From a virus, in UHGV virus genome UHGV-0200387: 26,278 nt of DNA, one strand, 5' to 3'. Below, piece after piece: positions 25,361 to 25,974 of the stretch. A program made the translations under genes and the position numbers. Position 1 is the stretch's first letter, and each line of letters opens with the position of its first letter. The notes beneath the pieces were generated by a model that was not told the origin of the DNA, did not search any database, and worked only from the letters and a program-made list of their open reading frames with translations.

Positions 25361-25489
25361 CTTTCCTCCAAATTAGAAGCTACTGATTCAGTTATTACTT
25401 ACTCCAGATACGACAAAGCCCCACCATTTCTGGCAGGGCTAGATTATTAAGCTGTGTGTCGAAGTGACCACTCTTAACACGTTAAACTA

Positions 25490-25519
25490 AAAAATGCGGA
25501 CCGCACTAGCATTTTTTTA
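25490..25519 (-). terminator. hairpin plus U-run following a 44-codon ORF (candidate terminator, possibly bidirectional)
   Basis: AAAAATGC (25490-25497) / GCATTTTT (25509-25516) around an 11-nt loop; T-run on both strands. Confidence 0.45.
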
Positions 25520-25520
25520 A

Positions 25521-25655
25521 TTATTTTTGCCTACTAACGACTGCATCCATCTCAAGGCGAACATCCAGCATTGACAGACACCCCTCAATAAACCCTTCAG
25601 CAAGCAGCATTTCTATGCGTATCTGCTTTTCGCTTTTCTTCCGGTGCTTCGCCAT
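25521..25655 (-). CDS. 44-codon ORF (MAKHRKKSEKQIRIEMLLAEGFIEGCLSMLDVRLEMDAVVSRQK), hypothetical
   Basis: ATG 25655 to TAA 25521, bracketed by two terminator-like hairpins. Only a weak Shine-Dalgarno, so coding status is doubtful. Confidence 0.25.
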   Translation of the reverse strand: MAKHRKKSEKQIRIEMLLAEGFIEGCLSMLDVRLEMDAVVSRQK

Positions 25656-25715
25656 CTGCCGTTTTGAATACCGTAGAATATAATGCCCAACCAACAAATG
25701 ATTGTCTGCGGCCGA

Positions 25716-25741
25716 AATAAAAAAGCCCGAGACAAGCGGGC
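25716..25741 (-). terminator. intrinsic terminator about 235 nt downstream of tR'
   Basis: On the minus strand: GCCCG-CUUGUCU-CGGGC followed by UUUUUUAUUU. Confidence 0.7.
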
Positions 25742-25974
25742 AATATGGGGGTAAGGCAATGCCGGCTCTATGGCCGAAGGGTCCCAGGCAGTGGGTTTGT
25801 TTGTGGTGGCAGGTGCTGATCTCCTGCTCAGGGTTGTAGCAAGCCCCATGAAGCGCGCACTACTGTAGTCATGGCGCATCAGCCTGCGCATTCACCACAA
25901 CGGAAAGAGCACTGGCTAACCAGGCTCGCCGACTCTTCACGATTATCGGCTCAATGCTCTTACCTGTTGTGCAG

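Follow-up and report, generated by a model that had tools for sequence, protein, structure and literature searches.

A putative structured RNA, a Q-gene remnant and an orphan late-promoter cassette between tR′ and the cargo genes of a P22-like Escherichia coli prophage

What lies between the late terminator tR′ and the cargo genes of UHGV virus genome UHGV-0200387, and does this DNA consist of separately regulated small units? The window, i.e. the whole stretch of 26,278 nt analysed here, is a P22-like Escherichia coli prophage (96% identity to phage IME10 from position 22798 downward) with its late operon on the minus strand. In the first-pass annotation three hairpins in positions 25974–25417 were regarded as terminators that bound such units, among them a candidate non-coding transcript and a 44-codon open reading frame (ORF). 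All of the described features are present on the minus strand where they were placed. The explanation that we consider best, and judge to be probable on the basis of sequence, is that 25974–25417 is a recombination patchwork of imported modules, situated between the resident Q/pR′/tR′ and a 1.35-kb cargo cassette. The patchwork would hold two functional-looking elements and one dead gene: a structured RNA of ~100 nt (element B), an orphan late-promoter cassette and, between them, the 3′ remnant of a Q antiterminator gene.

The joints of the patchwork can be followed by identity to other phages. Past tR′ the sequence is lambda-like and then divergent, as had been noted; alignment with the corresponding region of lambda gives 98.2% identity from tR′ to ~25890, where it stops. 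Positions 25915–25802 resemble a stretch of phage P1 (82–85%) and 25827–25696 a stretch of Enterobacter phage CobraSix (84%), while 25667–25447 match the 3′ ends of Q genes of Shiga toxin 2 (Stx2) phages and the DNA downstream of them (73%, DNA search). Finally, 25800–24456 are found at 98.5% identity in two E. coli prophages, whose resident Q differs from the one in the window. In one of these, AREA_C483, the segment lies downstream of a different, intact Q. It is important to note that the number of terminator-like sites in 24000–26278 (5) is not clearly above that in shuffled sequences (2.5 ± 2.0), therefore the case for each hairpin has to be made from conservation and not from counts.

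Element B occupies 25801–25900 on the minus strand and is a multi-helix structure supported by a covariance model, covariation and loop complementarity. Its closing helix P1 is formed by pairing of 25900–25893 with 25808–25801 (8 bp) and is followed by an AAU linker. Inside the closing helix there are a hairpin P2 (25889–25874, 5 bp, loop GGCUGA), P3 (25873–25847, 5 bp) with an invariant loop of 17 nt, P3b (25846–25831, 3 bp) and a hairpin P4 (25827–25809, 5 bp), the loop of which, AGAUCAGCA, is complementary to the P2 loop. Paired substitutions occur in four helices when the window is compared with P1 and with a prophage of E. coli O25. Using a 16-nt core pattern of B, at least 120 viral loci were retrieved, in 36 unique versions. 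In 19 distinct sequences 98.6% of the cells are paired in the proposed structure and 15 of 26 pairs have changed on both sides; in 36 distinct rows the latter number is 19 of 26. None of 500 shuffles reached these values, and controls with slid pairing were paired to only 36–52%. The loop sequences GCUGA (P2) and UCAGC (P4) are complementary across 34 distinct sequences, where the one varying position is G–C in 28, G–U in 3, A–U in 2 and mismatched in 1. RNAalifold agrees on P1, P2 and P4; the alternative that it offers for P3 has no compensatory support. A custom covariance model of B matches the window at 25904–25797 (129.6 bits, E 9e-32) and has no match in 938 kb of other lambdoid late regions. 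In our reading of these sequences B belongs to a conserved RNA family and is an intact copy.

Which strand and which nucleic acid carry the structure can be judged from the wobble pairs. There are 18 G–U cells and about one A–C cell, which points to RNA and to the strand of the late transcript. Pairing in single-stranded DNA, for example at a site of recombination or replication, would be in line with the location of B at mosaic junctions. However, besides the G–U excess on the transcribed strand, the orientation of B relative to neighbouring tRNA genes is constant (310 to 0): tRNAs are present within 1.5 kb of B in 105 of the 120 viral loci, and all 310 of them are on the B strand. This leaves the DNA explanation with almost no probability.

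The first-pass annotation had looked for a tRNA-like structure in the divergent segment and seen no convincing cloverleaf. This holds for canonical tRNAs: ARAGORN, run for tRNA and tmRNA with default settings and relaxed to -ps80, found none in the interval, and such a gene in the divergent segment was rejected. A non-canonical cloverleaf does exist, as B has a closing helix of 8 bp and four inner arms, and therefore tRNA finders reject it. Rfam 15 gave only noise (searches with E up to 10 of the region, of B alone and of a distant member), the best match, to TLS-PK1, scoring 13 bits (E 1.9) where the gathering score is 80. In Rfam scans of 24 B-bearing loci at gathering scores nothing was recognised at B; true tRNAs and other RNAs nearby were, and RF00005 did not respond to B. 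Two further structural ideas were dropped. A hammerhead-like reading of the CUGAUG in B does not hold since the motif is in a hairpin loop and not at a junction, and a longer helix enclosing B from outside (CAGTGCTCTT pairing with AAGAGCATTG) is present in Klebsiella phage KlebP_265 but is not general.

Element B is widespread. It is present in 546 of 5426 complete E. coli genomes (10%), nearly always on P1-like plasmids, and RefSeq annotates nothing there. On P1-like phage-plasmids B is located within tRNA arrays, on the tRNA strand, and in 24 loci it ends 3–4 nt before tRNA-Ser according to a script estimate (~2 nt by model coordinates). The 20-nt string of the P2 scaffold is found in at least 120 species, in assemblies of Proteobacteria, Flavobacterium, Coriobacteriia, Clostridia and Phycisphaerales. 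Full scaffold matches were obtained in 63 of 80 loci tested, with a central domain of 27–178 nt. Second and third copies detected with the covariance model in P1-like contigs, KlebP_265 and CobraSix keep P1, P2 and P4 and have a different centre. In the P1 record NC_005856 the coding sequences upl and plp overlie B on the opposite strand (~69814–69921), and both may be mis-annotations. Lambda itself (NC_001416, 44858–44941) keeps the closing helix of B, UUGUGCUG/CAGCACAA, together with the GAAU junction, while the interior is different (7.5 bits). A vestige of B may account for the long-unexplained DNA past tR′ of lambda. Clustering of gene neighbourhoods around 120 genomic copies of B gave only a CI/LexA-like repressor ~1.9 kb upstream in 14 loci and was otherwise uninformative.

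Two side observations concern copies of B. The 25-nt string GTGCTCTTTCCGTTGTGGTGAATGC, which covers the 5′ flank, closing helix and junction of B (25913–25889 in the window), occurs twice in phage P1 (L005, 1186–1210 and 1451–1475) and once in CobraSix (L002, 1443–1467); a further member of the family, less similar in sequence, may begin at the second copy in P1. In Pseudocitrobacter (L268) an isrJ-family RNA at 3517–3593 is located ~100 nt upstream of a copy of B, on the same strand.

Directly downstream of B there is a tRNA-array trailer with the intrinsic terminator T1 (25715–25800, minus strand), identified by terminator scan and comparison. This is the first of the three hairpins, and the strong terminator claimed for it is real: it has a G+C stem (25741–25725, GCCCG/CGGGC) and a U-run (25724–25719), and the stem varies by compensatory changes in four phages. 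The fold amounts to −8.1 kcal/mol (z −2.0). The same trailer and T1 that follow B in the window adjoin tRNA-Thr at its CCA end in phages ENT1 and Kp4864-1, therefore B appears to occupy a tRNA slot, held by tRNA-Thr in related phages and ended by a tRNA-array terminator. Thus the proposal of a non-coding RNA in the divergent segment is borne out in that a structured RNA is followed by a genuine terminator, while the idea of a short RNA is better moved to the orphan pR′–tR′ cassette, ~25474–25410.

A position in the tRNA slot raises the question of whether B is a decayed tRNA gene or a recombination scar without present function. In favour of this one can mention the tRNA trailer next to B, the rejection of B by tRNA finders and the fact that lambda keeps the closing helix only. 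Decay is difficult to reconcile with helices kept through compensatory changes and with invariant loops, with a scaffold 20-mer that is identical in distant phyla and with the presence of several paralogous copies per P1-like element. We therefore find a relic very unlikely.

How would B be made? From 26278 the late operon is lambda-like, with the 3′ end of Q followed by pR′, the 6S leader and tR′. The resident pR′ (26178–26206, minus strand; TTGACT, 17 nt, TAAATT) is called by promoter scan and is 98% identical to lambda and lambda-Q prophages. The lambda-type leader through tR′ occupies 25979–26171 on the same strand, as seen from sequence, fold and identity to lambda; the tR′ hairpin (26034–25986, U-run 25984–25979) has a fold energy of −17.1 kcal/mol (z −4.5). 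Then follows a lambda-like spacer (25901–25978, minus strand), in which GGTAAGAGCATTG (25966–25954) is complementary to CAGTGCTCTTTCC (25913–25901). The promoter scan called no promoter in this spacer between tR′ and B; a GATAAT hexamer is present there. Stx phage Sp5 has a promoter at this place, which serves its tRNAs (PMC7547250). We propose that B would be transcribed within the late leader and possibly also from a weak promoter past tR′, that it would end at T1 or be released by tRNA-processing enzymes, and that it would act as a stable small RNA. Since B is located in tRNA arrays, excision by these enzymes is probable by analogy. The scaffold would act as a clamp that gives folding and stability, with the invariant central loops as the working surface.

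It is also conceivable that B acts in cis on its own transcript, as an anti-termination RNA or as a processing or stabilising signal. A precedent is the put RNA of phage HK022, which makes RNA polymerase resist terminators. B is found early in long operons, upstream of terminators (T1 and the orphan tR′) and tRNA arrays, and the extreme conservation of its scaffold across phyla fits contact with a universal machine, e.g. RNA polymerase. On the other hand, the central domain varies between subtypes over the range given above, B in the window is followed by a conserved terminator resembling its natural end, and there is neither sequence likeness to put RNA nor an Rfam match. We consider action in cis unlikely, with a chance that should be taken into account, and prefer a stable small RNA.

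Several points weigh against our reading of B. Folding of 25700–25900 as a single sequence is no more stable than that of shuffles (z −0.69), so that the case is carried by covariation and not by energy. Invariant loops give no covariation signal, and the loop–loop contact rests on one covarying position. The association with tRNA genes fails for most chromosomal copies of B (6/120). As no promoter is called between tR′ and B, it may be made only late in infection. A literature search with sequence strings of B and of the 32-nt orphan leader described below returned no relevant paper; a description of B beyond the literature searched is possible.

Comparison with known RNAs shows what is common and what is new in B. 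Shapes like that of tRNA are known from RNAs that are not tRNAs: the stable species 1 and 2 RNAs of the phage T4 tRNA cluster, the bacterial Y RNA-like YrlA and the tRNA-like domain of tmRNA. B shares with them a cloverleaf-like form, a closing helix and two arms with touching loops. Unlike them, it lacks a canonical T-loop or D-loop as well as a free CCA end, the closing helix is 8 bp long and the loops would kiss by Watson–Crick pairs. The GOLLD and ROOL prophage RNAs (PMC5737381) are similar to B in being carried by prophages, often near tRNAs, in several phyla, with a multistem junction, many invariant nucleotides and a terminator next to them. B differs from these in its size of only ~100 nt, in having a swappable centre in a fixed clamp and in not matching their Rfam models. 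B has the features by which Weinberg et al. 2017 define 'sophisticated' RNAs, i.e. occurrence in several phyla, a multistem junction and many invariant nucleotides. There is nothing out of the ordinary in the Q remnant, the terminators or the mosaic joints. B resembles known kinds of RNA and matches no curated family.

The 44-codon ORF is open at 25655–25521, as described (the ORF listing has a longer form with a TTG start, 25697–25521). It is not a small gene but appears to be a by-product of a truncated antiterminator gene. Over 25521–25706 (minus strand), Pfam, PHROG, PGAP and identity all point to a Q gene. The translation NHLLVGHYILRYSKRQMAKHRKKSEKQIRIEMLLAEGFIEGCLSMLDVRLEMD aligns with residues ~69–120 of a 126-aa Q and with profile positions 69–118 of 118 in PF06530 (54 bits, cut-off 26, E 2e-14), and the 44-aa product matches PHROG 79, 'Q-like'. 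A full-length relative matches solved Q21 structures, so the remnant belongs to the Q21 family. Homology begins at ~25706, and the frame upstream holds stops and the T1 trailer. As the N-terminal half is missing, 25706–25521 is best read as a pseudogene and not as a gene of the PF06530 family: what is left is the C-terminal 45% of a Q21-family gene, the rest of which would have been lost through recombination at the T1 trailer. PGAP describes the AREA_C483 copy as 'antiterminator Q family protein, incomplete, missing N-terminus', i.e. as a pseudogene. A plausible small ORF past a late terminator can thus be the mere tail of a dead regulator.

The remnant is followed, 41 nt after its stop codon, by the late-promoter cassette that would have belonged to it. 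The orphan promoter (25479–25518, minus strand), recognised by the layout in relatives and by the phage 21 template, consists of an A-tract (25518–25512), the palindrome GCGGTCCGC (25504–25496) and a −10-like TAACGT (25484–25479). The orphan leader (25410–25478, minus strand) starts with the 32-nt GTTAAGAGTGGTCACTTCGACACACAGCTTAA (25478–25447), which is unique within the window, and has a predicted start of transcription at ~25474–25472; next come a tR′-type hairpin (25440–25417) and the tract UUUGUCGU. Close variants of GTTAAGAGTGGTCACTTCGACACACAGCTTAA are present in 3161 of 5426 complete E. coli genomes, e.g. upstream of essD in DLP12. The lysis cassette of DLP12 has this module and, according to PMC7918800, which cites Rueggeberg 2013, is controlled by Q.

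A scan of viral contigs with the leader pattern gave 120 loci, and the layout was compared in 80 unique contexts. It does not vary: the A-tract comes first, then a short palindrome and, ending just before the string, a TAnnnT hexamer; the leader follows, with an intrinsic terminator 20–30 nt further on. A2 and T6 of the hexamer are kept in 79 of 80 contexts, and TAACGT itself is found also in L030 and L119. A PF06530 Q is encoded upstream on the same strand in 98 of 124 motif loci, at a distance of 3–44 nt or, with morons between, of 0.45–2.5 kb; the remaining ones are 25 true module loci with <1.9 kb of upstream sequence and one spurious match that was excluded. Moreover, the class of the palindrome (GCGGTCCGC, GCGTACGC, TTTACGTACGTAAA and others) corresponds one-to-one to the Q cluster in 90 loci. 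Such tracking of the Q clade is seen in late promoters of the QuuD/DLP12, SfIV and Stx2-14040 types (loci L001–L132), and from these alignments the palindrome is a probable candidate for the Q-binding element of a very common prophage regulator. The remnant has 73–80% amino-acid identity to intact Q proteins of the GCGGTCCGC type, so remnant and promoter are cognate.

With this layout the second of the three hairpins finds another meaning. It is present at 25507–25493 with a U-run, as annotated, yet it is weak as RNA (−5.2 kcal/mol, z −0.8), the GCGTACGC palindrome of relatives cannot fold as RNA at all and the U-run is an A-run in many relatives (about half). It is therefore a DNA palindrome in the spacer of a late promoter and not a conserved terminator.

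The third hairpin, 25440–25417, is strong as described (−17.4 kcal/mol, z −3.6) and has a poor U-tract. In two other loci (L134 and L135) the same 63-aa and DUF2441 genes follow a lambda-family Q at 180 nt, and identity to the window begins exactly at this hairpin. There it comes after a lambda-type leader (AACGATGGGTTAAT) and serves as tR′, so 25440–25417 is a tR′-type terminator travelling with the cargo. Its stem differs between the loci by two compensatory pairs, and the U-tract is shorter in the window (UUUG) than in L134/L135 (UUUUG). Note that the hairpin lies within ~50–70 nt of the predicted start, where relatives have canonical terminators.

We return to the question of whether the three terminators mark as many small units under separate regulation, one of them a 44-codon gene that is translated. 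The ORF is indeed open and two of the three hairpins are strong. However, the similarity of the ORF to Q is confined to the C-terminal part, no Shine–Dalgarno sequence precedes its ATG, and this ATG is AAG in the AREA_C483 pseudogene; the second hairpin fails as shown above, and no promoter-like site is found ahead of the first two units. The hairpins instead belong to three separately imported modules, namely the tRNA-array trailer, the orphan promoter and the tR′ travelling with the cargo, and we regard three regulated units as highly improbable.

The best template for the orphan cassette is that of phage 21, with Q, pR′, Q-binding element (QBE), sigma-dependent pause element (SDPE) and tR′ (OL657228; structures 6P18 and 6JNX), in which Q is of the same protein family, PF06530, as the window remnant. 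In both cases the promoter comes directly after Q, and a Q-specific element, a candidate one in the window, is situated between −35 and −10. In phage 21 the −35 is followed by the Q-binding element, the −10, the start and the pause element, and termination comes ~50 nt into the transcript; the predicted leader in the window is similarly short, ~50–60 nt. Unlike in phage 21, Q in the window is truncated, the element is the palindrome GCGGTCCGC and not the two 8-bp direct repeats bound by Q21, and the 32-nt leader has a sequence of its own, common to QuuD/DLP12, SfIV and Stx2-14040 types. In AREA_C483 (L003, ~2880–2960) the resident 160-aa Q is followed by AATGAACA AATGAGCA, which are close to the phage 21 Q-binding repeats; therefore a true Q21-type module would precede the same orphan cassette in that prophage. 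Attempts to map the leader onto the pR′ features of phage 82 (pause at +25, GCC at +15–17, extended −10; PMC5001585) gave no convincing fit, and the Q of phage 82 is of a different family.

In the lysogen, a late promoter that fires constitutively and is closely followed by a terminator would produce a short RNA, which makes the cassette similar to lambda 6S and StxS units. From StxS it is known that a by-product RNA of pR′–tR′ can be a regulator (PMC7547250). The RNA predicted for the window is ~60 nt, as compared to 194 nt for 6S and 258 nt cut to 74 nt for StxS. No sequence homology of StxS to the orphan cassette was seen, and in the Stx2 phages that matched there is no 258-nt StxS unit but a different Q of 127 aa together with a short leader. 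The window cassette differs from 6S and StxS units also in having lost its Q and in lying downstream of another pR′–tR′.

If active, the orphan promoter would fire constitutively like other pR′ promoters, giving an RNA of ~60 nt that ends at 25415–25410. The weak U-tract would let some transcripts continue into the 63-aa gene, and a matching Q from a co-resident prophage could antiterminate at the cassette. In the lytic cycle the resident lambda-type Q would modify polymerase and carry it past every terminator.

Alternatively, the cassette could be a silent relic, and the 63-aa gene would depend on the resident late promoter alone for its expression. We take this as a serious possibility, though we do not favour it. 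The −35 is poor, the cognate Q is lost, and L134/L135 have the same cargo without such a cassette. It is also rare (3 of 5426 E. coli genomes), and its intactness may reflect only a recent origin. Against inertness, the A-tract, palindrome, −10 and leader all match those beside intact Q genes in related phages and prophages, and pR′-like late promoters fire constitutively in lambda, phage 21 and Stx phages (PMC7547250). It is unusual to find such a cassette intact when its Q has been lost: no other type of cassette was without an intact cognate Q, which is present in 97 loci.

An active orphan promoter is itself not free of difficulties. The −35 is poor, and neither the start site nor the sigma-dependent pause element could be placed with confidence; TAAGAG resembles TAAGCTG of phage 21, but it is not well placed with respect to the best −10 hexamer. 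The correspondence of palindrome and Q could reflect linkage instead of binding. Finally, a constitutive promoter with a leaky terminator ahead of the lysis genes might be harmful, arguing for low activity.

The first gene downstream of the orphan cassette is the 63-aa cargo ORF (25169–25360, minus strand, from the ORF list), which has a GGAGG ribosome-binding site. The protein is rare, with two clusters among 5.8 billion proteins. The DUF2441 gene (24661–25191; PF10386, PHROG 5663) is on the plus strand and converges with the 63-aa ORF in a 23-bp overlap, late transcription being antisense to it. Neither cargo protein matched any defence-system model (PADLOC). As in lambdoid morons and mosaic junctions, cargo (the 63-aa ORF and DUF2441) has been inserted downstream of the late promoter and ahead of the lysis genes, and the modules are bordered by terminators. 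Unlike usual morons, the cassette brings along with the cargo a Q fragment and a complete foreign late promoter.

On these grounds a wider reading can be put forward, tentatively and with less confidence than the patchwork itself. B could be the first noticed member of a new cross-phylum class of modular RNAs, in which a fixed clamp (closing helix and two hairpins with a loop–loop kiss) presents an exchangeable central domain; separately, the orphan promoter could place the cargo and lysis genes under the control of Q from a different, co-resident prophage. If this is true, B does a demanding biochemical job, such as binding a conserved host machine or countering tRNA-directed defence. About one in ten complete E. 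coli genomes (on P1-like plasmids) and many other bacteria carry a folded RNA that neither annotation pipelines nor Rfam report. The place of B in tRNA arrays and late leaders, together with the swappable centre, makes it directly testable. For late promoters of the QuuD/DLP12 type, present in most E. coli genomes, a practical rule emerges, that a short palindrome tracks the Q clade, and it bears on cross-talk between prophages, including Shiga-toxin phages.

Some minor observations were made in the window. The 13-mer TGGTCACTTCGAC is present on the minus strand in both the lambda-type 6S leader (26099–26087) and the orphan Q21-family leader (25470–25458), with 0 occurrences expected by chance; it may be a remnant of old sequence common to late leaders or mark a hot spot of recombination. 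A further terminator-like site (24565–24549, minus strand) is located just upstream of the holin gene. ARAGORN finds a tRNA-Arg (CCT) at 3023–3097 on the plus strand, opposite to the phage genes, and this is probably the attachment site of the prophage.

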